In this document: positions 3,197 through 64,000 of the stretch, in pieces
Layout of the letters: each line of letters opens with the position of its first letter
Numbering within the stretch: position 1 is the stretch's first letter
NCBI GenBank assembly: GCA_964561085.1
Contig: CAZLNP010000001.1
Location: 75,335 to 139,334, forward strand
Reading direction: 5' to 3'
Origin: an uncultured Candidatus Saccharibacteria bacterium
Lineage (GTDB): Bacteria; Patescibacteriota; Doudnabacteria; UBA920
Length of the DNA stretch: 64,000 nucleotides
Made by a program: the position numbers and the translations under genes
The notes under the pieces: generated by a model
Databases searched by the model: none
Told to the model about the DNA's origin: nothing
The model's input: the letters and a program-made list of their open reading frames with translations, nothing else

Positions 3197-3724
3197 ATGC
3201 CGAGATATGAATTGATGTACATTCTCGCATCTAGTGTATCTGATGATCAGGTACCTACAACCGCTCAAACTATTGAGCAGTACGTCACCGACAACGGTGG
3301 CACAGAAATTACCCACGAACAATTGGGTAAAAAGAAATTAGCTTATCCGATTAAGAAGACCCGCAACGGTCATTACGGAACTATTGTTTTCACTGCTGAA
3401 GGCAAAGGCGTAAATTCTTTGGACGCGAAAATTCGCACACAAAAAGCGACTATCATCCGTCACATCATTGTGAACATTGATGAGCACTTAGAACGTCTTG
3501 AAAAAGATAAAGAAGCTCAAGCAAAGATGAACCGCAATCGCCCACCGGAAGCTATCGCAGCTGACAACAGCGAACAAGTTGTTCCTGAAGCAAAGCCTGC
3601 TGCTAAACCAGTGCGCGAAGCTGCTGTAAAAGCTCCGAAAGCTGAAACACCAAAAGCTGTAGTGACTGAAGAAGTTCTTGACGAAGAAATCGAAAAAGCA
3701 CTTTCTGAAGATATTACTAAATAA
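3197..3724 (+). CDS. rpsF: 30S ribosomal protein S6 with Ala/Lys/Glu-rich C-terminal extension
   Basis: MPRYELMYIL...KKLAYPIKK pattern of bS6; first gene of conserved rpsF-ssb-rpsR cluster. Confidence 0.85.
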   Translation: MPRYELMYILASSVSDDQVPTTAQTIEQYVTDNGGTEITHEQLGKKKLAYPIKKTRNGHYGTIVFTAEGKGVNSLDAKIRTQKATIIRHIIVNIDEHLERLEKDKEAQAKMNRNRPPEAIAADNSEQVVPEAKPAAKPVREAAVKAPKAETPKAVVTEEVLDEEIEKALSEDITK

Positions 3725-15917: not shown

Positions 15918-15992
15918 GGCGCTATCGTCTAACGGTTAGGACAGACGGTTTTCATCCGTCAAATCGGAGTTCGATTCTCCGTAGCGCTACCA
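15918..15992 (+). tRNA. tRNA-Glu (anticodon TTC), CCA encoded
   Basis: 7-bp acceptor GGCGCTA/TAGCGCT (G1-U72), D-arm GTCT AACGGTTAGG AC, anticodon stem GACGG/CCGTC with loop TTTTCAT, T-arm CGGAG TTCGATT CTCCG, discriminator A then CCA. Confidence 0.85.
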
Positions 15993-17452
15993 CCTAACAT
16001 TTTATCCCTTTTGGAGATAGGCAAACATTCTTTTTTCCAATTGGTTATTACATTTTTATCACTTAGAGAAAAGTTTTCCACTAAACTTTTCACAAGACGG
16101 CGTCGGGATTCTTCCGACGCTGTTTTGTATGCAATGGTTGGGCTTTTAAGCAGTTTTCCAAGGTTTTCCATTTTCAGCATCGATTCAGCATTTTCAGACT
16201 GTACGCCATTTAATTGTTCAGTATATTCAATTTTTTTGTTTAACAATTTTGACTTCATGGATTGATAATCTTCGCTACTGATACTTTTGTCCAAAAATCG
16301 ATCCATTATATCGTCAAGCTGTTTCTCTACTTTATGAATTTCAAATATCCATTTAGCAGTAAGCTCCCCCTGTTGGCTTTTCAAGTCTTCCCTTAACTGT
16401 CCGATTGCTTTCAAAAACATTACTACTTCTTCATCCGAAAATTCAATACCCTTTAGTTCTTCAAAAAACTGTTCATCTACAAGTTCTTCTAACAAATTAT
16501 ATTTATGTTCTGCGCTGCGGCAGTTGTAGTACTTATAATAAACATTTCTATGTACTTTAGTTGAAGAAATACATCTTAATGGTCTATCGCAGGTAGGACA
16601 ATTAAGCATTCCTTGAAATACATACAACCGTTTTCTTTTATGCTTAAAGCTCTTCTTGTCTAACACTTCCTGAACTTTATCAAATAAAGATTTAGTAATG
16701 ATCGGTTGATGAATACCTTTGAAATCTCCTTTATTAGTCCACCGTACGATTCCGTAGTAAAATGGGTTTCTAAACATTTTATAAAGTGTTTTGTGTTTTA
16801 CCAAACCACCGTCATTATTCCTTAACCCCATTTCTTTTAACTTATCCTGTAAAGGTATAATCCCATACAAACCAGTAGCAAACATTTCGAATGCTTGTTT
16901 TACAAGTCTACTTTGAACAGGGTCAGGTTCTTTGAAACCTTTTTTAGAATCTAAATAACCGATTGGAGCTCTTGATGGAAAAAGTCCTTGTTCTAACATT
17001 CTATCAAATGCTGTATTTACTTTAACCCGCAATCTTTGGCTATAGACTGTTGCCTGCCCCCATAAATCATAAATTCTTGAAAGGTCATCGTCTGATTGAG
17101 TTGTGAGATTTTCAGCAGCAAAGTGAAAGTGATAGCCTTGTTCAATAAGTTTGTAAAAATTTCCAATATCTTGGTAATTCCTTGACGATCTGTCCACGGT
17201 AGCAAAGCAAATTCCAGCTAACTTTTCTTTCTTTAATCTTTGTATTAACATGCCAAACAACTTTCTCCCAGGACGAAAGGAAGATTCTACCCCCTCAAAG
17301 AAGTCAACTATTTCTAACCCTCTCTGTTTTGCATATAGTTCTATTTGTTTCTTTTGAATTTCTGGACTCCAGTTTGTTGCTTGGTCTTTTGAACTGACCC
17401 GTACATAAGCTAAGAATTTATTATTAGATAATTTTTTCATGTTGTCCTTCAT
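15959..17452 (-). CDS. Large serine recombinase (resolvase catalytic domain + recombinase domain + zinc ribbon + coiled coil)
   Basis: AYVRVSSKDQ catalytic serine motif near N-terminus, CPTCDRPLRC...C zinc ribbon, 497 aa; C-terminal codons overlap the tRNA-Glu 3' half. Confidence 0.9.
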   Translation of the reverse strand: MKDNMKKLSNNKFLAYVRVSSKDQATNWSPEIQKKQIELYAKQRGLEIVDFFEGVESSFRPGRKLFGMLIQRLKKEKLAGICFATVDRSSRNYQDIGNFYKLIEQGYHFHFAAENLTTQSDDDLSRIYDLWGQATVYSQRLRVKVNTAFDRMLEQGLFPSRAPIGYLDSKKGFKEPDPVQSRLVKQAFEMFATGLYGIIPLQDKLKEMGLRNNDGGLVKHKTLYKMFRNPFYYGIVRWTNKGDFKGIHQPIITKSLFDKVQEVLDKKSFKHKRKRLYVFQGMLNCPTCDRPLRCISSTKVHRNVYYKYYNCRSAEHKYNLLEELVDEQFFEELKGIEFSDEEVVMFLKAIGQLREDLKSQQGELTAKWIFEIHKVEKQLDDIMDRFLDKSISSEDYQSMKSKLLNKKIEYTEQLNGVQSENAESMLKMENLGKLLKSPTIAYKTASEESRRRLVKSLVENFSLSDKNVITNWKKECLPISKRDKMLGGSATENRTPI

Positions 17453-18176
17453 ATATGTTTCCTTTATATGATATTTTATTTTTATAAATATCGTTAGTTA
17501 ATATTTTTTTAATTGTTGACGGCCACCACCTGTTACCTCCACGCTTTGTTGGTATGCTTCGCAAATTTAGGTATGCAGCAATTTTAGTAAGATTCATTCT
17601 CTTATAGCGTTTTAAGTGAAAGATTTTTCTTACAATATCTGCCTCTGCTTGATTTGTTATCAACTGTCCGTCTTTGCAGTCGTATCCGTAAATTTCTCCT
17701 CCATGCCACCTCCCCTTAGCTGCAGCCGAAGCGCGTCCGTTGGTCAGTCGCATTGTAATCATGGCTCTTTCGAATTCACTAAAAGCACCTATAATTTGCC
17801 TAAACAGTTTACGAGTTGCATCATTACTACCTAAGTCTGGTTCAGTTAGTGAGATTAGCTGTTTATTTAGTTTTATAAACTCTCTTATTAGTCCTTCCTG
17901 GATATAGAGGTCACGGGCTAATCTCGTCAGTGACAAAATTACAACTGCTTTTACTTCGCTATTAACTTCTAAATACTGCATCATTTGTGCCAGCGCTGGC
18001 CTATGTTCCAAACCGCCACTTACACCATCGTCTTTAAACCATTCAACTATTTCTATACCGTTCTTTTTTGCATAATTTGATATTGATTCAACTTGTAATT
18101 CAATGTTGTCATTTTCCGCTTGTAGTGCAGTTGATACTCTGCAATATGCTATCGCTTGCATTTTCGTTCCTTCCAT
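17424..18176 (-). CDS. Serine recombinase, short form (resolvase domain + partial recombinase domain, no zinc ribbon)
   Basis: AIAYCRVSTALQ catalytic motif; 250 aa; 3' end overlaps the start of the 497-aa recombinase by 29 nt. Confidence 0.8.
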   Translation of the reverse strand: MEGTKMQAIAYCRVSTALQAENDNIELQVESISNYAKKNGIEIVEWFKDDGVSGGLEHRPALAQMMQYLEVNSEVKAVVILSLTRLARDLYIQEGLIREFIKLNKQLISLTEPDLGSNDATRKLFRQIIGAFSEFERAMITMRLTNGRASAAAKGRWHGGEIYGYDCKDGQLITNQAEADIVRKIFHLKRYKRMNLTKIAAYLNLRSIPTKRGGNRWWPSTIKKILTNDIYKNKISYKGNIYEGQHEKII

Positions 18177-46755: not shown

Positions 46756-47445
46756 ATGATAAAAACAAAATTTATATCGATATTTCTACTAGCAATTGCA
46801 GTGGGTCAATTCCCACTGTTTTCTATTAGTGCCCAATCAAGTTTTCCAAGTCGGCCACAAAGCACCATACTAAATGTCCCATATGTCTCTCAGATCCCTA
46901 CTGGCAATTGGAATGATCCCCGCCAAGCTGACGGATGCGAAGAAGCAAGTATTATAATGGCCATGTCTTGGATTAGAGGCGGCACAGTTCCCCCAGAGGA
47001 AGCCGAGCGAGATATTATTAATATGTCTGAATACGAAAGAGCAATCCTCGGATTCTTCCAAGATACCTCTGCTCAAGATACCGCAGAATTGATGCGAAAT
47101 TTCTATCTATATAAAGACGTAATTGTTAAACAAAACATTAGCGTAGAAGATGTGAAGCAAGAGCTTGCTTCTAATAGAGTGGTAATCTTGCCGATTAATG
47201 TTCGCGCTACTGGGTTAGCGATGTATCAGGGTGGACCTGTCCGCCATACAATAGTAGTAGTTGGCTATGACGATAAGAGTGATCAATTAATTATTCACGA
47301 CCCTCTTTACAAAAACATTCAAAATTTCTGGATTTCTTCGAGCGCAATTAATAAGTCACTGCGGAATTACGACTCTGGGAATCACCTCTCTACCAGCAAT
47401 GGAACAGCATTGATAAGTGTTGGTCGAGCCAGTATAATGTATTAA
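46756..47445 (+). CDS. secreted peptidase-C39-like (papain-fold) domain protein
   Basis: Signal peptide, VPYVSQ...GCEEAS candidate catalytic Cys and HTIVVVGYDD His segment as in C39_2/BtrH-like domains. Confidence 0.55.
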   Translation: MIKTKFISIFLLAIAVGQFPLFSISAQSSFPSRPQSTILNVPYVSQIPTGNWNDPRQADGCEEASIIMAMSWIRGGTVPPEEAERDIINMSEYERAILGFFQDTSAQDTAELMRNFYLYKDVIVKQNISVEDVKQELASNRVVILPINVRATGLAMYQGGPVRHTIVVVGYDDKSDQLIIHDPLYKNIQNFWISSSAINKSLRNYDSGNHLSTSNGTALISVGRASIMY

Positions 47446-51032: not shown

Positions 51033-52241
51033 CTAAACTGGGTTAGACGACCTGTTTTGTTCGTCCAGCAGACGAGTATGATGCCTTACGTATCTGTAAG
51101 CTATGTAGAAAAGCACTAAGAATAGAATCAACAGTAGAACTAGTAAACTCCAAATTACTGCGGGCCCCTGAGCAATCACTCCACTTGCAGAAGCAGGTTC
51201 CTTCAAGACAAACTTGGCTGAAGCCACAGACTCCACACCTTCATAGGTACTAGACACTCTAATAGTGTAGGTGCCAGTCGGAGTTAGTGGCGCAATATTA
51301 AATGTTTTCAAGAATTGAACCTGTCCACTAAATGATATTGTGTCTTGAGTCTCCAATACAACTTTTCCCAAAGGAGAGATAATCTGATAGTTTACATTTT
51401 GATTAGAAATTTGCTGACCAGTATTACTTACTAACGTGACCCAACTAACAAGTTTTCCGCCAGTTTCAACAGTTTCGTACTCGGGCAATATTTCATAGAA
51501 AACTCCAAAAATTATATCGGATGCATCTATAGGTGGGTTTGGAGGAAGTGGGATGGAGGTTCCGCCATCGCCGTCACCTGTTCCTGAACCTGGGTCTTCT
51601 CCATCATTGCCACCAGGTTGTCCAGGTTGCGTAGGCTGACCTGGCTCCTGTGGAACCTTAGGAGATTGGATTACAAAGTATGCTTGTGTACTGCCAGAAC
51701 GAGTTAAGTCATATGAATCATAGACTCGTGCAGTCACTGAATAAACACCATACGGTAGCGGATCGGGAGATTGCCATATCCAATCACCCTGCAGGCTTGC
51801 TCTGGCAGTGGTATTTAAATTTTTTGGGCCCTCTATGTATAAGAAGATGATTCCGTTTGGAACAGAGGTGGTACCTGAAAATGTAGGCCGAACAGTCTCG
51901 AAGACATACGCTGGTAAAATATTTCCGCCGACAGTAATGTTTCTTTGAGGAATTTGTCCAAGTGGTTCTGCTTTAATGGTTACTGTCGGAAAAGCTGTCG
52001 ATACAGGAGGCCTGCTTCCAGATGTAGATGTTGGCTCTGTTGGACCAGGATTAATACCAGCAACGGTTGCTGTAATGGTAAGATTCTCGGTATCTGTGAC
52101 GTCAAAAGCGCTCGCGTCTATTAAGAAAGTGCCCATCCCTGTAGCCATCACTAAAGCAGCAACACCAAAACACATGCTCATCGAAAGATGATACAACCTA
52201 TGTGCATGATGATGAGTCCACTTTTCTGGTTTGATTTTCAT
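51033..52241 (-). CDS. hypothetical cell-surface protein with N-terminal signal/TM, Pro/Gly/Thr-rich linker and C-terminal TM anchor
   Basis: ORF from track; hydrophobic segments at both termini, GQPTQPGQPGGNDGEDPGSG low-complexity linker. Confidence 0.5.
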   Translation of the reverse strand: MKIKPEKWTHHHAHRLYHLSMSMCFGVAALVMATGMGTFLIDASAFDVTDTENLTITATVAGINPGPTEPTSTSGSRPPVSTAFPTVTIKAEPLGQIPQRNITVGGNILPAYVFETVRPTFSGTTSVPNGIIFLYIEGPKNLNTTARASLQGDWIWQSPDPLPYGVYSVTARVYDSYDLTRSGSTQAYFVIQSPKVPQEPGQPTQPGQPGGNDGEDPGSGTGDGDGGTSIPLPPNPPIDASDIIFGVFYEILPEYETVETGGKLVSWVTLVSNTGQQISNQNVNYQIISPLGKVVLETQDTISFSGQVQFLKTFNIAPLTPTGTYTIRVSSTYEGVESVASAKFVLKEPASASGVIAQGPAVIWSLLVLLLILFLVLFYIAYRYVRHHTRLLDEQNRSSNPV

Positions 52242-52265: not shown

Positions 52266-52829
52266 TTACTGCGCTGGTGCCGCCGCTGGTGTAGGGACCG
52301 GTGCCGGGCTAGTCGCTGGTGTAGAAGTAGCTGGCGTTCCTGCACTGCCACTATTATTTAGTGGCGCTAATTCAATTATTTTATTTGTACTTGGGCGGAA
52401 AAGAATCGCCTTTCTATCTTTCTGATAGATAAGAACTTTGTCACCCACTTCAGCTTTTTCAAAAAATGGCTGACCTTCAAGTTTACTTAAATCAGATACA
52501 GTAGCGATGGTAGGATCTTCATCGGTTGGCAAAATAATCAATTTACCTACTTGCTCTACTAATTGTTTATTTGATTCCTTAGTCTTTGCAGCAGGATCGT
52601 TTTGGACAGATTCTAAATCTTTTTGGACAGACTTTAGCTGTTGCTGAGAGCGGATAAATAGGAATAGTGCGCCAAGAACTACTACAACAGCGATAACAAT
52701 TACAGCCCAAAGCAATCTTTTAGGCACTCTTGCTACCTCCGGTCGATTGCGCATACCTTCAGTTAAAGGGCGCTTTTCGGTCACACTGATTTTTGGAGAT
52801 TGGTTTTTTATTTCATCAAACATAAGCAT
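52266..52829 (-). CDS. hypothetical single-pass membrane protein with Pro/Thr/Ala-rich tail
   Basis: ORF from track; TM LLWAVIVIAVVVVLGALFLFI. Confidence 0.45.
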   Translation of the reverse strand: MLMFDEIKNQSPKISVTEKRPLTEGMRNRPEVARVPKRLLWAVIVIAVVVVLGALFLFIRSQQQLKSVQKDLESVQNDPAAKTKESNKQLVEQVGKLIILPTDEDPTIATVSDLSKLEGQPFFEKAEVGDKVLIYQKDRKAILFRPSTNKIIELAPLNNSGSAGTPATSTPATSPAPVPTPAAAPAQ

Positions 52830-52906: not shown

Positions 52907-55900
52907 TTATGGATTGGTTCCACTGCCTTCACCGCCGCCGTCTCCTGGAGGCGTATCACCTGAAGGTGGTGTATCTCCTGATGGAGTATCGGCAGGTGGG
53001 TCTGATGCAGGAGGTGTCCCACCGTCGCCAGAGCCTTCACCGGAACCGCTGTCACCAGAGCCACTATCTCCAGATCCTGAATCACCGTCATCGGCACCGG
53101 CCACAAAGCCGCTTGGAGTATCTATACTCATAAATGTTGTAGCGTTACGAACTGCTAACGCTGTCCATGACATCTTCACGTCACTAGGAGCTGGCTTGCT
53201 TAACACAATTGTGAAGCCAAACTTGCTCTTGTTTGTTACAACATAAGTGATGCCTTCAGCTAAGAAGGTTTGTGCTGCAGCAATTGAATCGTTCTTAAGA
53301 ACTTCGCGAGCTTCTTCATCTAGTAATTCTTGATCTACGTCTTGCTCAAAGCTAATTGATGCATTAACTATTGGCTGAGCTAGGTATTCACGAGTAAACA
53401 CTACATCTACACTTTGAACACCAGCTTTCACTACGGCGAACCCTGCAGTGTCAGAAGTAAAGTAAGGAGTGCCGAAGAATTCAACGTCGCTGCTGAATGA
53501 TAGCAGGTCACCAATTGCACTGATTGTATCAACTGTTAACCCACCGTTGAACATGGTTGTAGAAGCCACAGATAGTCCTCCGTCAGAAGTAGCTGAGCTC
53601 AAGAAGTCAGCACGCAAAGTTTGCGTTGTCACAGTTGGAGTGATTATTTCACCATTAGCAACTACTACGTCAGTTACAACTTCGGAGAGATTTTCTGAGT
53701 CTAAGCTTGGAAGTTGAGAAATTAAGTATTCTAGAATTTGTGAAGAATTTTGCGCTGAGTTTAACAATCCCTGTTCTGTACCAGTGTAATCAAAGGTTAA
53801 TCCAGCGAGCTGATCTTCAATAGCAAGGCCATTGTAGTTAGATGGTTTGATGAAAGCGTCAATTTTTCCAACGCCACCAGTAAATGTTTCTAGAGCTTGC
53901 CCAATCACAGATCCAGCTTTAGTTGCCTTCATGGCAGCACCTGGTATTGTTGCTGAGTTAACCAAGAAGTCACCTGGCATAATCTCGCCGTTCTCGTTAG
54001 AGACCTTAACCTGCGCTCGGCCAATCAACGCAACTGAATATTTTGTATTACCACTGCCTTCTTCTAGCTCAGAGCCAAGCTCTAATCCTGACTCTTCTAC
54101 TACAACTCCAAGAATTGATTTAGAACCAGACATGTCTGCTCGAGCAATTAGCGCATCTTCAGAATTGTCTATTGCTACCACTTCCCCTGCTTCTAAAGAG
54201 TCATCTGATGATTCATAGTTTTCAGATATACTATTGCCTGAAACCTTTACTGAATCTGCAACAACGTTTTCAGCTGTCACTGTTTCAGATGTGATTGTTT
54301 CGGCTGTCACTTCTTCAGCAACAACACTCTCCGCAATTATACTTTCTACCATGATACTACCTTCGATTTGAGCATCGCCTCTCACTATAATATTGCCAAA
54401 TAGCTCTAGCTCTGCAGAGTCTGCAGCTGTGCCAATTGTAAGCTTGCGAGTATTAGTGTTTACATTAAACAATGTGCTGCCGGTGTTATCTGAAATGTTT
54501 ACCGCAGTATCAGATGCCGCCTGAAGTACAATATCGCTACTAGCACCTGTGCTTGAACCATTCCAAGATAAGTTAACTAATACCAATACTTGGGTTTGAG
54601 AAGTGCCAGGAGTCCAGCTCTCTAGAGCTTTTCCAATAGTTGGTCCGTTAACCGACGCCTTCATAGCTTTACCAGGGTAGGTACCAGAAGATACGATTGC
54701 ATCTCCTGCTGCAATTGGTGCAGAGTCTGGCGCGATGTTTACAGGAACACGTCCAGCCAAAGCAACAGGTACAGTTGGCAAACCGTTAATAGCCGCTTCT
54801 TCCTGAGACAGACGTAAACCAGGTTTTGTAGAGTAGATACCAACTACTGTTCTGTCATAGCCAACAGAAGAGCGAACTACTAAACCAGTTTCATTTGGAT
54901 TCAAGCTAAGTACATCCCCTGCCACAAGGCCTTGTTCACGAGTTGGGTAGTCTTCCGCAATGTCATAAGCACCTGTAGTAGAAACAAGTGAGTGGCTAAA
55001 CAAGAAGCTACCCATGTTGTCGGCATTACTGTCTCCAGTCTGATTGCCAACAAAGCTAATGCTACCATAGTTTCCGCTTCCAGAATCAAATTTAAGCGCG
55101 TATGAATTAGTAAATGTCTTACTCCATGTGTAGACGCTACCGATACCACCTTCAGTGGTTCCTAAATATAGGGTTCCATTAAAAGCAATTATTGCAGAAA
55201 GTGAATCAACATTAGCCTGACTGCCAAATGTGCCTTCAGTAGAGTTTATTATATCCCACTTACGAGTAGTATCATCATACTCATATAAATTAGCCTGATT
55301 AACGTCACTATATGTGCCAGCATACAATCTTCCATTGTACTCTCGTAATACAGGCACGGAATCAGTAAAGTCTGCTTGGGTTTGATCAAGAATGCCTTCA
55401 GTAATCCCTGTCGGGTCAAAACTCAACTCAGGTTCGCCAAATCTTCCCTCAAGGTCACTAGCATTGCTAAATACAAATGAATAAACTTGCCCGGCGTCGG
55501 GTTCAGCAGTACCAAAGTACAAACGGCCATTATGGACTGCTAAGGATGAGATATCATCGATAGCGGTAAGGCCTCCAGCTGAAAATGTTCCGTCTGTTGT
55601 ATGAAGTCTTACGAAATTATTACTATTGCTATTTTCTCCTGTGTAAACACATAATCTAGCTCCATCACTGCCAGTACCTGCAGCAATACCCCAGAACAGA
55701 CGGCCATCGTATACAGCCAATTGACCAGAGTCTTGGTTATTCTGAGCAGTACAATATTGAGATCCACTCCCGCCATAACTAAGGTTAACAAAAGCTCCGC
55801 TTCCTCTATACGAGTACACCTGCGCTGCATCCGCCTCTTGGGTAGCAACTATTAGTACACCTCCATAAACTACCATATCGCTAATGCCATCAATGCCATT

Positions 55901-58900
55901 CTCAGCTCCGAATTCTCCCAAAGTATAATTGTCCATCATCCAGGCCGATCCATTGTAAGAATAAAGTGCCCCACGGTCTGCAGCAGCACCAGTTCTGGTA
56001 CCAGCGTATAATTTACCGTTAAACACTGTTAATACCATGGAGTCAGCTTCAGCAAAATCACCAGAAACCACCTTACCAGGAGTACTGTCTGATACTTTTG
56101 TCCATGTTGTACCGCCATCGTGCCTATAAACACTAGATCCATTTGTTTCTGCAGTAGCAGCATATAATTTACCATTGTAGATAGCAAAGCTAGATACGCC
56201 ATCACGAGCTGTTTCAGATCCAAATGTTCCAGCAGCGCTATTGGTAATAGTGAAAGTGCTTCCAGTATTTGCATCGGTTTGTGCTCCAACTGTTAAGTCA
56301 CCAGATGCCACGGTTAAGCGACCAGCAATGTTTACTGTTGTTGCACTTGTACCTAAGTTTAGAGTGGTAGTATTGCCGTTGTTTAAGAAGTTAAATGTGC
56401 TACTAGCCAGTGATTGACTAATTCCGCCATCGGAGAAGTAAGTAGAGCCATTACCAGCAACTATACCGTCAATAAAGTAACCACGACCGTAGCGATTTGC
56501 CAAAGGTTCAGAAGTATTAATACCACCAACTTCTGGAACATGCATTTCTACCACACTAGCGCCGTTATCCCAAGTAAGCGCAGGTGATATTATAAATAGG
56601 TTTGCTGAAGGATTGTCTATAATTTTCGCATAACAGACCGCAGTGGAACCGGAACAGTTTCCTGAAACAGGATCAACCTTTACATAATTTCCTATGTCAA
56701 AATCGTTATCAGAGGATACTGTCAGGCTGGTGCTATTTGAACCAGTTCCAACAGCTGTAGTTGAACCATCAAGCTGAGTGAAACCAGAGGTAATAGATCC
56801 ATAGTTGCTAGCAGCTAATAGTGCTGCACCACTGCTATTTTGTAGTTGTAACAAGTCTGCGGTTTGGCTAGCAATAGCCTTAACTTTCATGGTAATCGCA
56901 GAAGTAGACCAGGAGTTTTGAACTGCAAAGGCAGCATCGCCAGGCAAAGTTGCTGTACCAAATACATATTTAGAGTTACCTTGATCGAAAGCGAAGTTTA
57001 GACCATAGACAGTCGCATTAGAGTTACCTCCTACCCCAAACGCCACTGTTCCATTAGATTGCTGAGCTTGGAACAGGTCCGCGGATTGAGATGCAAAACC
57101 TTGAACCACTAATCCTTTATGAGATGCATTAGCTGAGTTAATCTGAGCAGTGGCATTGTTATCTACTGTGCTGTAGGCATTAACTAATAGCTTATTGCTA
57201 GTTCCGAAAGTAGTGGCATTAATACCAACATTACCATTGCTTGAGTTTGCAAATAATGTAGTTAAACTTGGGGTACCGTAGAACAAAGTACCTGTAACAC
57301 CAGATCCATCATTAGTTACTTTTAACCGATGTCCTGTACCAGCATCATTAGCGCCAACATCCAGCAACAAGGCAGAGCCACTAGGAGAAACTCCAGCAAT
57401 TAAACCTCCTCCGGAGTAGTTGTATGAATTAGAGTTAGAGTTAGCGGCTACTAATTGAGTAGCGAGAACTCTCAAAGTGTTACCATCGCTATTAGTGGAT
57501 TGACGGATTTCAGTATTGCCGGTCATGCCGATACTTCCAGCTACTTGCAAAATTCCATTTGCAGAGTTTGGAACAACTCCCACGCCAACATTTCCACCAG
57601 CAAATACGGCAGCGTAGCTGTTTATAGCACCTGTTTGAGAATCTACATAAAGGCCATAAGAGGTTTCTCCACCACTTGCCCCTTGATTGCCAATACGCAT
57701 TCCGTAAATATTTTGGGTACCGTTAACTGGACTACCCGCAGCGTTTTGAATACGTATAGAGTACGTATCATGAGTTCCAGAAGTTCCAGAAGCAGTGATA
57801 GTTGGAGCGATGTTAATACCACTAACGACTGATACTCCAGAAGTAGATGTTGAGTTATTTGTAAATGCTAAGTTAATTAAGTTACCTGTATTGCCAGAAC
57901 CTGGATTGTAAGAAGCACCACTAGTAGAAAGTAGTGAACCTGTTGTTAAGGAGGACCCTAGGGTAGCAGAAACTAGGCTGCCAGAGGTTAAACCACTACC
58001 GCTAAGAGCAGCAAGTGTACCAGTAGTAGCAGAGTTAGCAGTTAGGTTGAATATACCAGTACCAGTGTAAACGCCAGTGTTAGTAAGAGCTAAGTCTGCT
58101 CCAGTTGTTGTTGTGTTTGCAATTGAAATAGTATCGTTTGCAGTTGTTTGCGAGAGCACAGTTCCAGTCCTGGTCCAATATCCTAAAGCACCACTAGTAG
58201 GCGCAGTTGTTGTTAGCGTCCCATTACCACCAGAAGTATATAGAGCACCGTTAGTTGTTAGAGCTGAAAATTGAATAGTGCCTGAAGAAACAATTCCAGT
58301 AGCAGCAGCAATTGCACCTGAGGAGTTTACTTGAAACAAGTCGCCAGAACCTACTGTTAACAAGGCAGCTGGTGTTGTGTCGCCTATTCCGACGTTGCCG
58401 CTAGCCAAAACAGTAAGTTTTGCAGATGTCTGATTACGAACTTCTAACAGTTTAGCAGTAGCATTAACTAAGTTATTAGTTGTATCTAATGTATATCCAA
58501 CAGCTGAACCACCGTCTGCAACACCAGGATTGGCAATAAACTTATTATTACCACCCGCATCCATTAATGAAATTATTCCACTTCTAGGGTTGGTATGGAA
58601 ATTAGCCAAGTCTCCTTCATAGCTTTTAAAAGTAAGGGATGAAGCATAGGTATTATCCACACCTTGAATCGTTAATCCTTGATAAACAGACAGGGTTGCG
58701 CCATTACCCCCACCCTCATTACTACCACCGAATGAAAAGTAGTTACCCATAATATTCAGCCTAGGGGCGTGGGCATATGCTGTAGCTCCTGCAATTGTAT
58801 TTACGCCAGTGGTACTAATAAGCTGCCAACCCAATGAGTTAGTAATATTAATTCCGTTATTCCCCAGTATTTGCCCAGCGGACGATGCGTACAAGGGAGG

Positions 58901-61900
58901 AGATGTCACAGTCCCAGCTGCACCAGTATCAGAGTATGATGTTCCAGATGTAGAATATCTAGTAAAGGTGCCATTGGACCCACCAGAGGAACGATAGATA
59001 TAGTAGCTTGTTGCTAAAGTTGAAGCTGTCCAGGTTAAGTCAACTTGGTTATTTCCGCCGGTCACATTTACATATATATACGCAGGGGCGGATTCCCCCG
59101 TTGCATCAATTGACGTAATAACATAGTAGTAGTTGGCATTCGCCAAGCTACCGCCAGTAGTTGCTGTACCGCTAAAGTTAGTTGGAGCTTGGACGCCGTA
59201 TGCTTTAATGTTTCCTTGGGAAACTGATAGTTTTTCTGCCGGCGACACAGTACCAATCCCCACTCTTTGAGATGTATCAATAGTCAAAGCTGCGGTACTG
59301 TTAGTACCTAAAGTTAAATTGCTAGAGTTAATTGTTTGCACAACCCCAGCACTGGTCATTTGCAAAGTCTCAACATTGCCAGCAGTAACTAAACGGATGC
59401 TTCCGCCACTAGTTCCATCTTGTACGCGCAAATAACTAGCAGAGGTAGCAAGCAACATATTTCCTGTAGCAGAAATTTGAATAGGTTGTGTACTTGAAAG
59501 CTCACTATACCCACCACCATTGTAGGTAGCTTTTAGCATGTCAAAGTAACCACCACCGGAGTCATATCTTAGAAGTAAAGGAGCTACTCCTCCGCTACTG
59601 TTTGCTTGAAGTCTTGCAGTGGGTGATGTTGCATTTATACCAACATTACCATCGCCTTGAATGGTCATTTTTTCTGCCAAAGCGGCTGCGCTATTAACAG
59701 TGTAGAATCCTATATTTGATGTGCGGGAAGCGTGGGTTGCTGTGGTCCAATAAGAAGCAATTCGAGCCATATCTTGGTTGTCAGTGGTGGAAGATTCACC
59801 CTGCAAAAGAATACCTGTTCCAAAGTTGGCAGCTGCAGTACCTGTAGAATTACTTGAAGAAATAAATTGATCAACTATAGTATTAGTTGTTGTGTTATCA
59901 CCATTGTAAGACCTTAGTGCGCCTCCACTACCTCGCAAAGAGAAGTAAAGTCCACCGCCAGAGGAGTATGATTGTAATAAACCACCCGCAGATGTGCTAT
60001 TATTGGGGCGGAAATCTAACCCTGGATAATATCCATTAGTTGCATCGCCGGCTAGAATCAAGGTCGGATTAACACCAGAGACATCCAAATGGATATTTCC
60101 ATTTCCTGAACCACCTGACACAGTTAATTTGGAAGATGGGGCAGTTGTCCCAATCCCCACATTACCTGCATCGAAAATCGCTGCGTAGTTGTTTGTGGCG
60201 CCAGTTGCTGTTGCATACAAACCCACGTTTACAGAAGTCGCGCCAGCGCCAGTTGCTTCTGCTGAAATTGCAGTTCTTGTTTGAGATGCAGTCGCATCAT
60301 TTTGAAGAACTCGTAGCTGGTTGTAGTTTCCAGGAGCGGTAGTGTTAATGCCGACATTACTATTCCCTGTACCAGAGCCACCAGGAACAAATAAAATATA
60401 TTTAGACGCGTTTTGGTTTACTAAAGAAAACTCTCTCGAGCCTCCACCAACATTAAATGTGAAGTCCCCGTTTTGACTAAGCCCGGAATTACCACCTACC
60501 ATTTGAAGAACTTGAGCTGCATCTGTACGACTAAGTGTGACTCTGCCTGTAGTTATCTGAACGTCACCAGCAGTAGTGACTAAGGCATAATTAGCTGCAG
60601 TTGCTCCTGAAGCAGTTAATTGCAATGCGTAGTTTACAGCAGATGCCCCTGTATGAGTATTAGAGATTTGAGCACCATAAGTAGCCTGAGCTCCAGTTAC
60701 AGCTCCTTGCAAAGCAACATTTAATCCAGTTTGATTATTTAGAGCCCCTGTACCATTTGAAGAAAGAGACAGCAAGTTTCCAGAAGTTAATCCATTCCCA
60801 GTAACTGCAGCAAGTGTTCCTGTAGTAGCAGAGTTAGCAGTTAGGTTGAATATACCAGTACCAGTGTAAACGCCAGTATTAGTAAGAGCTAAGTCTGCTC
60901 CAGTTGTTGTTGTGTTAGCTACAGAGATAACATCATTTGCTGTAGCAGGTTGAAGAGTTGTTCCTGTTCTAGACCAATAACCAATAGTACCACTTGTTGG
61001 AGCGGTTGTTGTTAGAGTTCCATTACCACCAGAAGTATATAGAGCGCCGTTGGTTGTTAAAGAGGAGAATTGAATAGTTCCAGAAGAAGAAAGACCAGTA
61101 AGTGCAGAAGCCACACCAGCTGAAGTAATTTTAAAGTTAGTAAAGTCAATTAAGTTGCCGCCAGCTGTGGTTCCTGAAATTAATGTGTCCCAACCTGTAC
61201 CAAGTCTAATGGCAGCCGAAGTTATACCTGTTCCGTCTGTCACATTTCCAATGTTAACACCATTTGGATTACAAGTTGAGCCACCAGTACAAGCTGTGAA
61301 AGTTGGAGCAACTGAGACACCATTAATAGTCTTAGTGCCAGATGCACCAGTAGTCACGTTTACTGTTGGTGAAATTAAAATTCCATTTGTTGTGGAAGTA
61401 GCTGTGCCATTTGTTGCATCTGTAAAGGCTAAGCTAACAAGGCTTCCCGTTTCTGTTGCCGAACCATGATTGTAAGAAGCACTTGAAACTCTATATGCTC
61501 CCCCAGTTGTAAGAGCAGAACCTAGAGTTATAGACTCAGCAATGCCAGTAGTTAGACCTGTTGCTGAAGTGCCTTGAATTGTCCCAGTAGTTGCAGAGTT
61601 TGCAGTCAGAGTAATTAGGCCAGTACCAGTATAAACTCCTGAAGTAGTGACTGCCAAGCCATTGCCTGCAGTTGCAGCACCCATTTGAAGATCAACTAGT
61701 TCTGCATTAGTGGCTAAGTTAGCGCCGCCACCTGTGATGAGCAATCCAGTTCCAGATGTCATGCCAGTGAAAGACATTTTAGAACCATGACCAGTCGTGA
61801 GTGAGTTACCAACAACATTAAATCCAAGGGCGTCAGCTGCGCCAGTTCCTGTATAAACTCCTGTGCTGGTTATAGTAATACCTGCACCCACAGTATTAGC

Positions 61901-64000
61901 ACCAAGAGGTAGGTCTATTAATTCTCCACCAGTTTGCATAGTAGCTCCAGAACCTTGAATTTGCATACCATTACCAGTTGTAATTCCTAAGGTGGCTACA
62001 TAAAAACCAGTACCTGAATTAACAGAGCTCGCAAGTAATGCTAAAGCAGAGGACGATGCTGATTGGTTAGTGTTCGCAGAAGTTACTCTCATTGTTCCGG
62101 AACCTTGGATATAGCCTGTGACACCACTTATAGCACCGGCAGAAGAAATATCAATGTTAGTAGTTTGCAGAGAGAAAGTACCAGAGCCACCGCCAATAGT
62201 CACAAGAGAAGTAGCCCCACCAGTACCAATGTTAACTGCACTAGAGCCTGAGGTATTGATGTTGGTTGTGCCAGTCAAAGTTAAACCACCAGTTCCCTGA
62301 AGTAAGCCAGAGCCAGAGTTAACACCAACCGCTACCACAGCACCAGCTGAAGAAACATCAAAGTTTGTAAAGTCGATTGCGGAAGTTGTACCAACAATAT
62401 TATTGTCAGCAATAGAGAGTGCATTTGTGAAGTCTGTATCAGTGATTGTTATTGCTGTTGTTTCAGCAGTTGCAGCGCCTAAAGTAATGGCACCGTTTTC
62501 AGAAAGCTGGAACAAAGTAGTAGCTGCATCATCTTGCACCAAGATTGGAGAACCAGTGTTTTGAGATTGATCAACAATAATATTCAAGCCATTACCAGTG
62601 TAAGCATTCGCATCTACGCCATCCATTGTAATTTGAATTGCATCACCGGCAAAAGTTCCGCCAGTTGCCTGGTTAACTGTAAGTTGTAATAAGTCACCGG
62701 TCACTGCACCTGTTGTTGTTTCTGTGATAATTACCGGATTGTTTGATGCAGTTTCAATTGTATTACCAGCACCATATGCTGCTTGCAAAGTTACAAGACC
62801 CGCACAAGACGACCATGAAGGAGCTGCTGCTGTATTCCCTACTAAACACTGCCCAGTAGTTCCGACCGCGGTGAATGACAATGCATTTGATGCGCCACCA
62901 TACATCACACCGTTTTGGGTGATGGCGTTAGCTTGCCATGTTCCAGAGTTAATTGATGGAACTCCAGAAGAAGCAGAGAAGTTTTGACCAGTACCACCAT
63001 ATTGAGAACCAACCGCTGTCCCGTTCCATGTTCCCGTTGTGATAACGCCTGTATTGGCAGTGACTACAAGGCCATTGAAGCCTGTCGCATCAGTAATAGC
63101 TCCAGCTGAGGAAATATCTATGTTTGTTGTTTGCAGGGAAAAAGTTCCAGAACCCCCACCAATTGTTGTAAGAGTGTTGTTAGTACCTGTAGAAATGCTT
63201 GTCGCAAAGTTGCTGTTGTTGTTTAGACTCACTGCTCCACCAGCTGTAGTAATACCGACGGAAGCAGCAATAGCTCCAGAAGAATTTACTTGGAACAAAT
63301 CCCCTGAACCAACGGTTAGAAGGGAAGCGGGAGTTGAATCGCCAATACCGACGTTGCCAGTACTAGTTTTAATTGTTACTTGAGTTGTGTTATTTTCTCT
63401 TATAGAAATGTCGCCACCAGTTGGTCTGTTGATGTATAAATTAGTAGCATCACCAAGCAGTGAATAGTTTGAACTAGTTAAAGTTCCCTGAACGCTCAAG
63501 CCTGCATATCCCGTTCCGAAACCTGCATCACCTATAATAGTGCTAAGTTGGCCACTAGTACCTTTTACTTCAAATTTACCCGCCAATGATGCAACACCGG
63601 TCCCTACTCCAACATTTCTACTACTATCTATATATAGAGCATTCCCTGCATTAACATCAAAACGAATATTACCACTAGCCTGTCTATTCACAAAGTAAAG
63701 GTCTGTTGTGTACACACCAAAGTCTGCCTCTGCAGTTCCTGCTTGATCCACGAACTGAACTGCTTCTCCCAAATTACCTTGAACTACTAATGCAGTGACC
63801 TTTGCAGCATCATTAGCAGAAACCCATAATGGATTAAGTTGATCTGCTCCAAAATAAGCACCACTCAAGTTTGTTGGAGTTGATGTACCAATACCAACGT
63901 TTCCACCACTTGCTGGAACTATGATTGCATAGTTATTTGTGCCACCTGAAGCATTAAAGTAACCAGCTACGTTTGTAGAGCTAGTCCCAGTGTGTGTATT
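52907..64000 (-). CDS. Giant fibre/adhesin-like protein, >3650 aa, 5' end beyond window
   Basis: Continuous ORF to the window edge. Dozens of ~30-aa GNVGIGTT.P...L.V.G beta-helix-like units, long internal duplications (DNA approx 58020-58355 vs 60822-61140 about 90% identical), central FNGKLYAGT-type propeller-like repeats, two homologous ~120-aa C-proximal modules and a GSGDSGSG/TPPSGDTPP low-complexity C-terminus. Confidence 0.8.
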   Translation of the reverse strand, partial: NTHTGTSSTNVAGYFNASGGTNNYAIIVPASGGNVGIGTSTPTNLSGAYFGADQLNPLWVSANDAAKVTALVVQGNLGEAVQFVDQAGTAEADFGVYTTDLYFVNRQASGNIRFDVNAGNALYIDSSRNVGVGTGVASLAGKFEVKGTSGQLSTIIGDAGFGTGYAGLSVQGTLTSSNYSLLGDATNLYINRPTGGDISIRENNTTQVTIKTSTGNVGIGDSTPASLLTVGSGDLFQVNSSGAIAASVGITTAGGAVSLNNNSNFATSISTGTNNTLTTIGGGSGTFSLQTTNIDISSAGAITDATGFNGLVVTANTGVITTGTWNGTAVGSQYGGTGQNFSASSGVPSINSGTWQANAITQNGVMYGGASNALSFTAVGTTGQCLVGNTAAAPSWSSCAGLVTLQAAYGAGNTIETASNNPVIITETTTGAVTGDLLQLTVNQATGGTFAGDAIQITMDGVDANAYTGNGLNIIVDQSQNTGSPILVQDDAATTLFQLSENGAITLGAATAETTAITITDTDFTNALSIADNNIVGTTSAIDFTNFDVSSAGAVVAVGVNSGSGLLQGTGGLTLTGTTNINTSGSSAVNIGTGGATSLVTIGGGSGTFSLQTTNIDISSAGAISGVTGYIQGSGTMRVTSANTNQSASSSALALLASSVNSGTGFYVATLGITTGNGMQIQGSGATMQTGGELIDLPLGANTVGAGITITSTGVYTGTGAADALGFNVVGNSLTTGHGSKMSFTGMTSGTGLLITGGGANLATNAELVDLQMGAATAGNGLAVTTSGVYTGTGLITLTANSATTGTIQGTSATGLTTGIAESITLGSALTTGGAYRVSSASYNHGSATETGSLVSLAFTDATNGTATSTTNGILISPTVNVTTGASGTKTINGVSVAPTFTACTGGSTCNPNGVNIGNVTDGTGITSAAIRLGTGWDTLISGTTAGGNLIDFTNFKITSAGVASALTGLSSSGTIQFSSLTTNGALYTSGGNGTLTTTAPTSGTIGYWSRTGTTLQPATANDVISVANTTTTGADLALTNTGVYTGTGIFNLTANSATTGTLAAVTGNGLTSGNLLSLSSNGTGALNNQTGLNVALQGAVTGAQATYGAQISNTHTGASAVNYALQLTASGATAANYALVTTAGDVQITTGRVTLSRTDAAQVLQMVGGNSGLSQNGDFTFNVGGGSREFSLVNQNASKYILFVPGGSGTGNSNVGINTTAPGNYNQLRVLQNDATASQTRTAISAEATGAGATSVNVGLYATATGATNNYAAIFDAGNVGIGTTAPSSKLTVSGGSGNGNIHLDVSGVNPTLILAGDATNGYYPGLDFRPNNSTSAGGLLQSYSSGGGLYFSLRGSGGALRSYNGDNTTTNTIVDQFISSSNSTGTAAANFGTGILLQGESSTTDNQDMARIASYWTTATHASRTSNIGFYTVNSAAALAEKMTIQGDGNVGINATSPTARLQANSSGGVAPLLLRYDSGGGYFDMLKATYNGGGYSELSSTQPIQISATGNMLLATSASYLRVQDGTSGGSIRLVTAGNVETLQMTSAGVVQTINSSNLTLGTNSTAALTIDTSQRVGIGTVSPAEKLSVSQGNIKAYGVQAPTNFSGTATTGGSLANANYYYVITSIDATGESAPAYIYVNVTGGNNQVDLTWTASTLATSYYIYRSSGGSNGTFTRYSTSGTSYSDTGAAGTVTSPPLYASSAGQILGNNGINITNSLGWQLISTTGVNTIAGATAYAHAPRLNIMGNYFSFGGSNEGGGNGATLSVYQGLTIQGVDNTYASSLTFKSYEGDLANFHTNPRSGIISLMDAGGNNKFIANPGVADGGSAVGYTLDTTNNLVNATAKLLEVRNQTSAKLTVLASGNVGIGDTTPAALLTVGSGDLFQVNSSGAIAAATGIVSSGTIQFSALTTNGALYTSGGNGTLTTTAPTSGALGYWTRTGTVLSQTTANDTISIANTTTTGADLALTNTGVYTGTGIFNLTANSATTGTLAALSGSGLTSGSLVSATLGSSLTTGSLLSTSGASYNPGSGNTGNLINLAFTNNSTSTSGVSVVSGINIAPTITASGTSGTHDTYSIRIQNAAGSPVNGTQNIYGMRIGNQGASGGETSYGLYVDSQTGAINSYAAVFAGGNVGVGVVPNSANGILQVAGSIGMTGNTEIRQSTNSDGNTLRVLATQLVAANSNSNSYNYSGGGLIAGVSPSGSALLLDVGANDAGTGHRLKVTNDGSGVTGTLFYGTPSLTTLFANSSNGNVGINATTFGTSNKLLVNAYSTVDNNATAQINSANASHKGLVVQGFASQSADLFQAQQSNGTVAFGVGGNSNATVYGLNFAFDQGNSKYVFGTATLPGDAAFAVQNSWSTSAITMKVKAIASQTADLLQLQNSSGAALLAASNYGSITSGFTQLDGSTTAVGTGSNSTSLTVSSDNDFDIGNYVKVDPVSGNCSGSTAVCYAKIIDNPSANLFIISPALTWDNGASVVEMHVPEVGGINTSEPLANRYGRGYFIDGIVAGNGSTYFSDGGISQSLASSTFNFLNNGNTTTLNLGTSATTVNIAGRLTVASGDLTVGAQTDANTGSTFTITNSAAGTFGSETARDGVSSFAIYNGKLYAATAETNGSSVYRHDGGTTWTKVSDSTPGKVVSGDFAEADSMVLTVFNGKLYAGTRTGAAADRGALYSYNGSAWMMDNYTLGEFGAENGIDGISDMVVYGGVLIVATQEADAAQVYSYRGSGAFVNLSYGGSGSQYCTAQNNQDSGQLAVYDGRLFWGIAAGTGSDGARLCVYTGENSNSNNFVRLHTTDGTFSAGGLTAIDDISSLAVHNGRLYFGTAEPDAGQVYSFVFSNASDLEGRFGEPELSFDPTGITEGILDQTQADFTDSVPVLREYNGRLYAGTYSDVNQANLYEYDDTTRKWDIINSTEGTFGSQANVDSLSAIIAFNGTLYLGTTEGGIGSVYTWSKTFTNSYALKFDSGSGNYGSISFVGNQTGDSNADNMGSFLFSHSLVSTTGAYDIAEDYPTREQGLVAGDVLSLNPNETGLVVRSSVGYDRTVVGIYSTKPGLRLSQEEAAINGLPTVPVALAGRVPVNIAPDSAPIAAGDAIVSSGTYPGKAMKASVNGPTIGKALESWTPGTSQTQVLVLVNLSWNGSSTGASSDIVLQAASDTAVNISDNTGSTLFNVNTNTRKLTIGTAADSAELELFGNIIVRGDAQIEGSIMVESIIAESVVAEEVTAETITSETVTAENVVADSVKVSGNSISENYESSDDSLEAGEVVAIDNSEDALIARADMSGSKSILGVVVEESGLELGSELEEGSGNTKYSVALIGRAQVKVSNENGEIMPGDFLVNSATIPGAAMKATKAGSVIGQALETFTGGVGKIDAFIKPSNYNGLAIEDQLAGLTFDYTGTEQGLLNSAQNSSQILEYLISQLPSLDSENLSEVVTDVVVANGEIITPTVTTQTLRADFLSSATSDGGLSVASTTMFNGGLTVDTISAIGDLLSFSSDVEFFGTPYFTSDTAGFAVVKAGVQSVDVVFTREYLAQPIVNASISFEQDVDQELLDEEAREVLKNDSIAAAQTFLAEGITYVVTNKSKFGFTIVLSKPAPSDVKMSWTALAVRNATTFMSIDTPSGFVAGADDGDSGSGDSGSGDSGSGEGSGDGGTPPASDPPADTPSGDTPPSGDTPPGDGGGEGSGTNP

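Follow-up and report, generated by a model that had tools for sequence, protein, structure and literature searches.

How ultrasmall episymbionts such as Saccharibacteria and other Patescibacteria pick and hold their hosts is largely unknown, and work so far (PMC10633639, PMC11623550) points to type IV pili and a few candidate adhesins. The window analysed here, a 64,000-nucleotide stretch of contig CAZLNP010000001.1 from an uncultured Candidatus Saccharibacteria assembly (GCA_964561085.1), ends in a giant open reading frame (ORF) on its minus strand and raises the question of what such a protein is for. We put at roughly 60% the probability that the 3,697 visible residues are the C-terminal part of a surface fibre, exported by Sec, anchored by its N-terminus, trimeric and self-cleaving, by which a Saccharibacteria-like episymbiont recognises its host. 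Judged by its sequence, the protein is assembled from phage tail-fibre building blocks: its stalk holds units homologous to the mosaic adhesive trimer (MAT) fibres of Bdellovibrio bacteriovorus, and two modules near its C-terminus are related, on modelled structure, to the auto-chaperone of the phi29 appendage protein gp12. The features of the gene, from the window edge to the stop codon, are listed here (A5 is a profile of the best-conserved stalk unit, described below):

52907-64000, minus strand: giant ORF, 3,697 codons visible, stop codon at 52907-52909.
63308-64000, minus strand: MAT-like fibre unit 1, cut by the window edge (residues 1-231; domain found with the A5 hidden Markov model (HMM), E 1.6e-14).
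60359-63307, minus strand: Thr/Gly/Ser/Ala-rich shaft with internal paralogous segments (residues 232-1214).
60635-61075, minus strand: duplication copy 1 (residues 976-1122), with DNA repeats D1/D2 at 60767-60943 and 60960-61135.
59201-60358, minus strand: MAT-like fibre unit 2 (residues 1215-1600), with four GNVGIG-type motifs; first row of alignment A5.
58901-59200, minus strand: possible fibronectin-III-like insert (residues ~1601-1700, '...YYYVITSIDATGES...DLTWTAS...YYIYRSS...').
57827-58276, minus strand: duplication copy 2 (residues 1909-2058), with DNA repeats at 57968-58144 and 58161-58336.
57299-57724, minus strand: MAT-like fibre unit 3 (residues 2093-2234; HMM A5 domain, E 1.9e-5).
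55115-56233, minus strand: seven-bladed beta-propeller (residues ~2590-2962), from repeats, AlphaFold2 model and Foldseek.
54551-54988, minus strand: module A, phi29-gp12-type (Peptidase_G2-like), motif intact (residues 3005-3150).
54254-54550, minus strand: linker (residues 3151-3249), with a predicted local distance difference test score (pLDDT) below 50.
53816-54253, minus strand: module B (residues 3250-3395), with the degenerate motif S3257-I-S-E3260, in which the Asp is lost.
53123-53518, minus strand: H-type-lectin-like domain (residues 3495-3626), a compact alpha/beta fold in the model, pLDDT 87-98.
52910-53098, minus strand: acidic Gly/Ser/Asp/Pro low-complexity tail (residues ~3635-3697), by sequence.

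For the stalk, we built profile A5 from nine sequences of its best-conserved unit, the first row being residues 1215-1600 of the giant protein, the part of the stalk with the top homologue coverage. Compared with the PDB, this profile found five distinct solved sequences (eight entries), all of them fragments of Bdellovibrio bacteriovorus MAT fibres: 8ond (Bd2133) at E 3.6e-17, 8oml at 6e-16, 8ojn at 1.6e-7, 8on4 at 4.7e-7 and 8ol4 at 3e-5, in alignments that reach past the ...ERMRI..GNVGIGT..P..KL.V.G motif. Run back against the giant protein, the same HMM located at least three units, at residues 1-231, 1215-1474 and 2093-2234. GNVGIG-type motifs lie at residues 34, 129 and 216 in the first unit, and those at 2137 and 2257 are assigned to the third. 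According to PMC10769870 (Caulton et al. 2024), MATs carry a signal peptide and a conserved beta-rich N-domain of ~130 residues, form an intertwined trimeric fibre with the capping-loop consensus V-G-G/N-pi-x-x-P-x-x-x-L, and end in variable tips (TNF-like, C-type lectin or novel sandwiches), with a self-cleaving S74 chaperone at the end of 13 of 21 MATs; they sit on the surface of the predator, and Bd2439 binds prey glycans. The fibre homology that marks a MAT in that paper is found here in the profile matches, the three units and ten copies of the motif. Peptidase_S74 (PF13884) was absent from the giant protein when it was searched against Pfam whole and in pieces, which places it outside the S74 subgroup of MATs.

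The rest of the stalk is less conserved. A homologue search with residues 1241-2440 returned 65 proteins, each covering just 3-50% of the query; many of these relatives have Peptidase_S74 at their end and bear the name 'tail fiber domain-containing protein', and an overlapping piece of the giant protein (residues 1401-1800) gave weak matches to tail-fibre PHROGs. The Thr/Gly/Ser-rich stretches at residues 232-1214 and ~1900-2090 drew few homologues, the former almost none; it has many internal matches at 25-40% identity and no family match in Pfam, PHROGs or NCBIfam. Residues ~1601-1700 may, by sequence, be a fibronectin-III-like insert: homologues P0147 and P0150 align there and weak PHROG matches of unknown function fall on it, and Pfam did not confirm a fibronectin-III domain. 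An S74-ended fibre from Patescibacteria, P0161, shares with the relatives of the giant protein the same signal and the same INFQGKL N-terminal domain, and this common N-terminus suggests one fibre superfamily with interchangeable C-terminal ends.

At the C-proximal end, the two modules of ~140 residues are homologous to each other (residues 3014-3140 and 3258-3384, 33% identity, E 8e-23). A homologue search with residues 2991-3697 retrieved 113 proteins, mostly 'hypothetical' and mostly from Patescibacteria, in which two architectures recur, one joining the module to a shared C-terminal domain and the other joining the propeller to the module. The family alignment, A1, gives the consensus D[LVI]AExYPT...GD.V.ID...IGV.S..PG...VALAGRVPVKVS.ENG.I..GD.LT.S..PG.AMKAT..G..IG.ALE, in which the motif Glu never varies and conservation of the Asp is at least 90%. 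Some relatives score Pfam Peptidase_G2 (PF11962, 'IMC autoproteolytic cleavage domain') over the module-homologous region at E 2e-10 to 2e-5, covering model positions ~18-101; one scores the XM1_gp53 minor capsid protein on the module region, and relatives also carry K1-lyase_C and Phage_depo_C domains. Modules A and B of the window had no Pfam match at E <= 1, and a PDB sequence search with residues 2991-3420 found nothing useful. Profile A1 matched chains of the phi29 pre-neck appendage protein gp12 at E 1.1e-3 and 1.4e-3. In these alignments the motif Asp of A1 falls on the first residue of 3gqh_A, the released fragment, and on D692 of 6qz9_A, the full-length protein, so that the D-I-A-E of module A stands opposite D-F-A-E of gp12; in 3suc, the uncleaved 'pre-mature' gp12, the Glu position of the motif is a Gln. 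D692 and E695 of gp12 reportedly form its cleavage motif (Xiang et al. 2009). Module A keeps both, as Y3012-D3013-I-A-E3016, with the predicted scissile bond at Y3012|D3013; module B keeps the Glu and has lost the Asp.

Structure prediction points the same way. AlphaFold2 modelled module A at pLDDT 80-89 in the first model and module B at 90-97. In the second model, module A was unfolded and the alignment had stacked the homologues on module B, and for this reason the fold of module A is taken from the first model. With the model containing module B, the top Foldseek match in the PDB was 3suc (E 1.5e-4, probability 1.0), followed lower down by phage capsid decoration and head-fibre base proteins and then by H-type lectins; in BFVD the top match was a 'Preneck appendage protein' (E 7e-13, target-normalised template modelling (TM) score 0.67), with tail-fibre-like and collagen-repeat phage proteins below it. 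On the module-B model the gp12 fold is thus recognised, and we assign both modules to a family related to the phi29 gp12 auto-chaperone, with the cleavage motif present in A and broken in B. Unlike a gp12-type terminal domain, they are internal: module B lies 310 and module A about 550 residues before the C-terminus. At the end of the linker between them, residues 3223-3251 (DNA ~54248-54334) form an acidic, quasi-periodic V/E/T stretch, AESVVAEEVTAETITSETVTAENVVADSV, which could be a short coiled-coil or a beta-spine that registers three chains.

Just before the modules, seven [YF]NGKLYAGT repeats begin at residues 2608, 2660, 2712, 2764, 2823, 2888 and 2940, with a period of 52-65 residues. 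In the AlphaFold2 model of residues 2441-3640, the region ~2590-2960 has pLDDT 80-93 and paired strands in each repeat, and Foldseek placed it closest to the seven-bladed EPTP propeller of LGI1 (target-normalised TM score 0.69-0.70, E ~1e-9). Other matches were the eight-bladed Tako8 designer propeller, at high rank, the Photorhabdus lectin PLL, and WD40 and kelch propellers. The region gives a sub-threshold Pfam DUF6242 match, relatives of it are annotated as PQQ_2, LVIVD or cytochrome-D1-type, and no catalytic family was detected for it. We conclude that residues ~2590-2962 are confidently modelled as a seven-bladed beta-propeller.

About 240 residues separate module B from the acidic tail. 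They include a long helix (residues ~3409-3432), then a low-confidence stretch, and then the confidently folded domain at residues 3495-3626. The family of this domain, aligned as A6, has the invariant motifs D-T-A-G-F-A and G-F-T-I.L...D..F-S-W, and Pfam H_lectin (PF09458) matches 14 of its 17 members at E <= 1 (best 1.1e-4); the copy in the window, which has a long insertion, had no H_lectin match. Foldseek found Helix pomatia agglutinin, SLL-2 and discoidin II at E 5e-3 to 5e-2, matches that come with no report of the aligned query region, and a sequence profile of the domain had no match in the PDB. The case for an H-type-lectin-like domain therefore has moderate support.

The reading frame that joins these parts is sound. 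Translation from base 64000 to the stop codon gave no stop in 3,697 codons, and a first-pass annotation, made from the letters of the sequence, was right to call the frame uninterrupted to the window edge. The ORF listing starts at the first TTG (63868), and the preceding 44 codons are coding as well, since residues 2-65 match residues 1250-1320 of the same protein and residues 1-42 share 76% identity with one homologue. The gene is therefore open through the edge, and its N-terminus is missing from the visible part. The protein is rich in Gly (14%), Thr (13%), Ser (11%), Ala (11%) and Asn (8%) and has eight Cys; its 3,697 visible residues hold no transmembrane-like segment.

Self-comparison also fixes the nature of the repeats, which the first-pass annotation had described as ~30-residue GNVGIG units, duplicated 110-residue segments about 90% identical in DNA 2.8 kb apart, and hotspots of assembly error and phase-variation-like recombination. 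The motif exists, as do its exact duplicates, GNVGIGD(S/T)TPA.LLTVGSGDLFQVNSSGAIAA being present at residues 215 and 1868. Its ten copies (residues 34, 129, 216, 1215, 1280, 1452, 1580, 1869, 2137 and 2257) are scattered about 65-1,000 residues apart, a spacing on which we rejected a tandem array of 30-residue units; the GNVGIGTxxPxxKL motif punctuates the stalk instead. The duplication likewise stands, with copies 2,799 bp apart, and is longer and less alike in DNA than had been stated: ~150 residues (976-1122 and 1909-2058) are 66% identical in protein (E 1e-58), and the DNA blocks of 177 and 176 nt are 85% and 76% identical. By its sequence it is a recent duplication. Residues 184-291 and 1839-1943 are 46% identical, and residues 2505-2995 match one another repeatedly. 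The hotspot remark found no support, because the frame is unbroken over 11 kb, no exact DNA repeat within the gene is longer than 56 bp and the blocks are only 76-85% identical. An assembly artefact was rejected on the intact ORF, the short exact repeats and the giant orthologous ORFs in many genomes.

Where the gene sits was read from its downstream neighbours and from a syntenic relative. Two small ORFs follow it:

52266-52829, minus strand: ORF of 187 residues with a hydrophobic, membrane-anchor-like segment; no Pfam match.
51033-52241, minus strand: ORF of 402 residues with hydrophobic segments near both ends and an immunoglobulin-like region; weak Big_13 match.

Beyond them, on the opposite strand, lie genes for a class I aminoacyl-tRNA synthetase, TsaD, a C39-like peptidase and a DsbD-like protein; the Peptidase_C39-like (papain-like cysteine protease) gene, at 46756-47445 on the plus strand, is directly upstream of tsaD and overlaps it by one base. 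The best locus of our genome scan, L001, belongs to a Saccharibacteria metagenome-assembled genome (MAG) and is syntenic with the window: a giant gene, a small ORF (57% identity to the 187-residue ORF), a 404-residue ORF (43%), and on the opposite strand the synthetase (71%) and TsaD (77%). Homologues of the 187-residue ORF occur in 13 of 80 related loci, and the 402-residue ORF has 43-46% identity to ORFs of L001 and a second locus, L002, being syntenic in both. By this association the two ORFs are possibly linked to the giant protein as anchoring, export or assembly partners.

The giant gene of L001 is complete and encodes 2,484 residues. Its product starts MKNLTT...VILVCVYALVLVVGGLGYA, a signal or membrane anchor, followed by a IPKYINFQGKLT... 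domain, and its last ~1,100 residues are 52% identical to residues 2524-3627 of the window protein, the stalk being essentially unalignable. No phage genes lie upstream of it; one upstream gene has a WxL-interacting peptidoglycan-binding domain. Among the complete relatives, ~17 of 31 start with a hydrophobic leader and the conserved INFQGKL domain; a search with the N-terminal domain of L001 returned short fragments only, and no named relatives. The synteny, the 52% identity and the unalignable stalk place the giant gene on the chromosome of a Saccharibacteria-like organism and mark the C-terminal part of its product as conserved and the stalk as hypervariable.

The module family extends far beyond this locus. 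Species-representative genomes scanned with the module alignment yielded at least 550 loci, and almost all of the best 80 among them are labelled Patescibacteria or 'uncultured Gammaproteobacteria'. The latter labels (L004, L008, L010, L033, L059 and others) look doubtful: these loci encode the same giant-fibre family as Patescibacteria MAGs, and some lie on contigs or chromosomes of only 1.3-1.6 Mb. In the 80 loci the module stands 300-780 residues before the C-terminus of mostly giant ORFs, many of which exceed 3,300 residues and are still open at the locus edge. The HMM found two or three modules in 32 of 84 module-bearing ORFs. Of 52 single modules, 49 retain D-x-[AG]-E, and the last module of L001, L079 and L044 has lost its Asp, as module B has. 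An exhaustive profile search returned 28,848 clusters at E <= 1e-3, 23,294 at <= 1e-10 and 3,102 at <= 1e-30, in proteins of up to 6,814 residues. The module is not confined to giant fibres: locus L067 encodes, on the minus strand from near 16850, a 260-residue ORF for a small stand-alone protein (~255 residues) with a signal peptide and the module alone.

Viral copies are arranged differently from cellular ones. In IMG/VR the module occurs on at least 83 contigs at 35-42% identity (a degenerate ALAGRVPVK pattern gave 86 loci, 82 of them confirmed, and a second set of patterns added one), and there it always forms the last ~123 residues of the ORF, from [AS]DLAE[YF]Y... to the stop, in ORFs of about 300 to >4,200 residues. 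Six viral contigs (L092, L139, L124, L166, L122 and L136) hold ORFs of 3,500 to >4,200 residues with the module at the end; these are either equally giant phage fibres or, in some cases, misclassified cellular fragments. A viral copy of the module matches proteins of isolated jumbo phages (Atu_ph07, Phosso, PA5oct and Campylobacter CP220-like phages), which where annotated are virion structural proteins or baseplate wedge/tail pin proteins; module A of the window, searched by tblastn, had no match among isolated phage genomes.

With these comparisons in hand, the C-terminal claims of the first-pass annotation can be placed. The seven repeats that it took for a beta-propeller are modelled as one, and its two homologous modules, run through the structure prediction and phage tail-fibre comparison it had proposed, are real domains rather than low-complexity noise; it left their identity blank and missed the lectin-like domain. 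The GSGDSGSG/PPSGDTPP tail that it set after the modules is present, separated from them by the ~240 residues described above. Its view of a fibre-like protein with phage-fibre kin holds, given the five MAT fragments matched by the stalk profile and the relatives annotated as tail fibres with Peptidase_S74, and so does the link it drew to episymbionts and phages, given the Saccharibacteria synteny, the genome loci, the IMG/VR contigs and several jumbo phages.

We favour a self-cleaving host-recognition fibre, whose parts are argued from different kinds of evidence. Export and N-terminal anchoring are predicted from the counterparts with leader sequences, and trimer formation would follow by analogy from the MAT and gp12 homologies. 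After export, the C-terminal chaperone modules would bring three chains into register and nucleate trimer folding of the fibre from its C-terminal end. Module A, with its Asp/Glu motif, would then cut between Y3012 and D3013, a prediction drawn from motif conservation, the alignment with the gp12 site and the terminal phage copies. Such a cut would leave the propeller as the distal tip and free a trimeric fragment of ~685 residues (module A, linker, module B, lectin-like domain and acidic tail), in which module B, without its Asp, would stay uncleaved. The propeller, the lectin-like domain or both may bind glycans on the surface of the host bacterium and so serve recognition and attachment, as their modelled folds suggest. 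Variation of the stalk in length and sequence, together with its duplications, may diversify reach and antigenicity.

Several observations weigh against this reading. The giant protein, searched whole and as ten overlapping pieces against Pfam, PHROGs and NCBIfam, had no above-threshold match, and a PDB sequence search with the whole protein gave nothing useful, so that each domain assignment goes via profiles of relatives or predicted structure; sub-threshold matches (DUF6242, GbpA and two tail-fibre PHROGs) were used as hints only. At E about 1e-3 the sequence match to gp12 is borderline, and most of it falls in the first half of the module. The N-terminus lies outside the window, and the anchor is deduced from a counterpart whose stalk does not align. 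The literature searched holds no experimental link to host attachment for any member of the Patescibacteria family. Most pointedly, the module is internal here, unlike the phage copies, with a second module and a lectin-like domain after it; a cut at module A would cost the fibre a putative binding domain, which argues for a structural role without cleavage. This is the core of the most serious alternative, in which the fibre is the same and the gp12-like modules do not cut: as beta-sandwich nodes of permanent trimerisation they would clamp three chains; the lectin-like domain would stay on as the distal tip, and the propeller would offer a second binding site. The 300-780 residues that follow the modules in Patescibacteria and the binding-type domain among them fit this idea, as do the matches of the module fold to non-cleaving proteins (those of Borrelia phage BB1, the phi29 gp8.5 base, T1 and XM1), the XM1_gp53 match of one relative and the lost Asp of module B. 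Cleavage of gp12 is also reportedly ATP-dependent, and ATP is not available outside the cell, where the fibre would have to fold. Against a purely structural role, the Asp and Glu are among the best-conserved positions of the family and align exactly with the gp12 cleavage site, and the phage copies are strictly terminal, as expected for releasable chaperones. We regard non-cutting modules as possible and, on balance, rather unlikely.

Two further explanations would change what the protein is for. It could be a tail-fibre gene of an integrated prophage, for a virion or a tailocin, rather than a cellular surface protein: its building blocks are phage-like, IMG/VR contigs hold ORFs of >4,000 residues ending in the module, the upstream flank of the gene is outside the window, and another part of the window holds an integrated element with two serine recombinases. 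We rejected a prophage location, and consider this origin very improbable, on the housekeeping genes beyond the small hydrophobic-segment ORFs on the 3' side, the same order in L001 with its non-phage upstream genes, and the distance of the recombinase island, more than 17 kb off behind housekeeping genes; virion proteins, moreover, have no signal or transmembrane anchor of the kind found on the L001 counterpart and on about half of the complete relatives. The other explanation is a secreted or surface-bound enzyme that digests host capsule or cell wall in the manner of a tailspike depolymerase. Depolymerases include phi29 gp12 and many other proteins that have an auto-chaperone at the C-terminus, the domains K1-lyase_C and Phage_depo_C occur in relatives, and the Foldseek list of the propeller contains, at low rank, a GH43 propeller and a xyloglucanase. 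Yet no glycoside-hydrolase, lyase or esterase family was detected in the 3,697 residues, the best matches of the propeller are binding propellers and lectins (LGI1 EPTP, PLL), not enzymes, and the stalk matches adhesive MAT fibres, not beta-helices of the pectate-lyase type. A degrading enzyme thus seems to us hardly credible.

Compared with known systems, the candidate fibre stands closest to Bdellovibrio MATs such as Bd2133, Bd2439 and Bd3182 (PMC10769870). These have in common with it the homologous stalk units, with a motif resembling the capping-loop consensus, a tail-fibre-like build, a binding end that varies at the C-terminus and, as an option, a self-cleaving chaperone there. Their owner also lives on other bacteria, and counterparts of the window protein, too, start with a signal peptide and a conserved domain. 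In contrast to them, the window protein is at least 3-4 times longer (>3,697 vs about 1,000 residues), has long Thr/Gly/Ser-rich shaft segments to which nothing in MATs corresponds and comes from a Saccharibacteria-like source. Its chaperone is of the phi29-gp12/Peptidase_G2 type in two tandem copies, not S74, and term searches of PMC10769870 found neither a propeller nor an H-type-lectin-like domain among the MAT tips. With phi29 gp12 (PF11962; 3gqh, 3suc, 6qz9) it shares the fold of the modules, a weak and specific sequence signal and D-x-A-E at the cleavage site. Trimer assembly of gp12 needs its C-terminal domain, which is removed by cleavage once the protein has folded (PMC3357383). In the window, unlike gp12, the modules are duplicated and internal with a further domain after them, module B lacks the Asp, and module A is preceded by the propeller and a ~45-residue linker rather than a pectate-lyase-like beta-helix. 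The S74-ended 'tail fiber domain-containing proteins' of phages and Patescibacteria (T5 pb1, K1F) have the stalk motif units and the same logic of folding a trimer from the C-terminus and then cutting, with an unrelated chaperone fold and catalytic motif (Ser-Lys in S74 vs Asp/Glu here). Very large surface proteins of Absconditicoccaceae (PMC13059738) and candidate adhesins of Southlakia epibionticum (PMC10633639) are, like it, giant, exported and equipped with adhesion domains, with proposed roles in host recognition; they differ in their fibronectin-III, VCBS, dockerin and integrin-type domains, and term searches of these two papers found no mention of tail fibres. GhpA of Aureispira (9flp, 5,898 residues), a giant fibre for catching other bacteria, is a functional analogue; homology to it was rejected, the match being at chance level (E 2.4). 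The literature searched yielded no account of MAT-like fibres or gp12-type chaperone modules from Patescibacteria, and nothing that pairs Saccharibacteria with 'intramolecular chaperone'.

Two other regions of the window deserve record. A tRNA-Glu gene at 15918-15992 is directly followed by two serine recombinase genes on the minus strand (15959-17452 and 17424-18176) and then by a ~20-kb stretch of lower G+C content (0.35-0.39 vs 0.40-0.46 elsewhere) with DUF4238 and methyltransferase genes; the region 15918-36000 looks like an integrated mobile element or genomic island at a tRNA gene. A second large surface-type protein of 1,760 residues is encoded at 10066-15348 on the minus strand. It has several fibronectin-III domains, an AIR9-type immunoglobulin domain, a purple-acid-phosphatase N domain and a weak SASA (sialate O-acetylesterase-like) match, and is another candidate host-interaction protein.

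No new principle is at work here, as phage-derived trimeric fibres with self-cleaving chaperones are already known on predatory bacteria. What this locus adds is a Saccharibacteria-like genome that encodes a fibre of >3,700 residues related to the experimentally studied prey-binding MATs of Bdellovibrio, differing from them in its chaperone (phi29-type and duplicated) and in its predicted binding domains. The module, found in about 23,000 protein clusters and in at least 550 species-level genomes, mostly of Patescibacteria, and often in proteins of 2,000-6,800 residues, is a searchable marker for candidate host-recognition fibres. That the chain is cut at Y3012|D3013 and that the propeller and the lectin-like domain bind glycans are testable predictions, and Saccharibacteria are now genetically manipulable. 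A bolder proposal, doubtful in our own estimate and offered tentatively, is that Patescibacteria, Saccharibacteria among them, have made from the parts of phage tail fibres a large and fast-evolving arsenal of giant fibres that process themselves and recognise hosts, and in which tandem gp12-type modules act as staged, ATP-independent self-cleaving switches. The first module would cut, exposing the propeller tip on the cell-bound fibre and shedding a soluble trimeric lectin particle, which the degenerate second module would hold together. If this were so, variation of stalk and tip would largely set which host bacteria an episymbiont attaches to.

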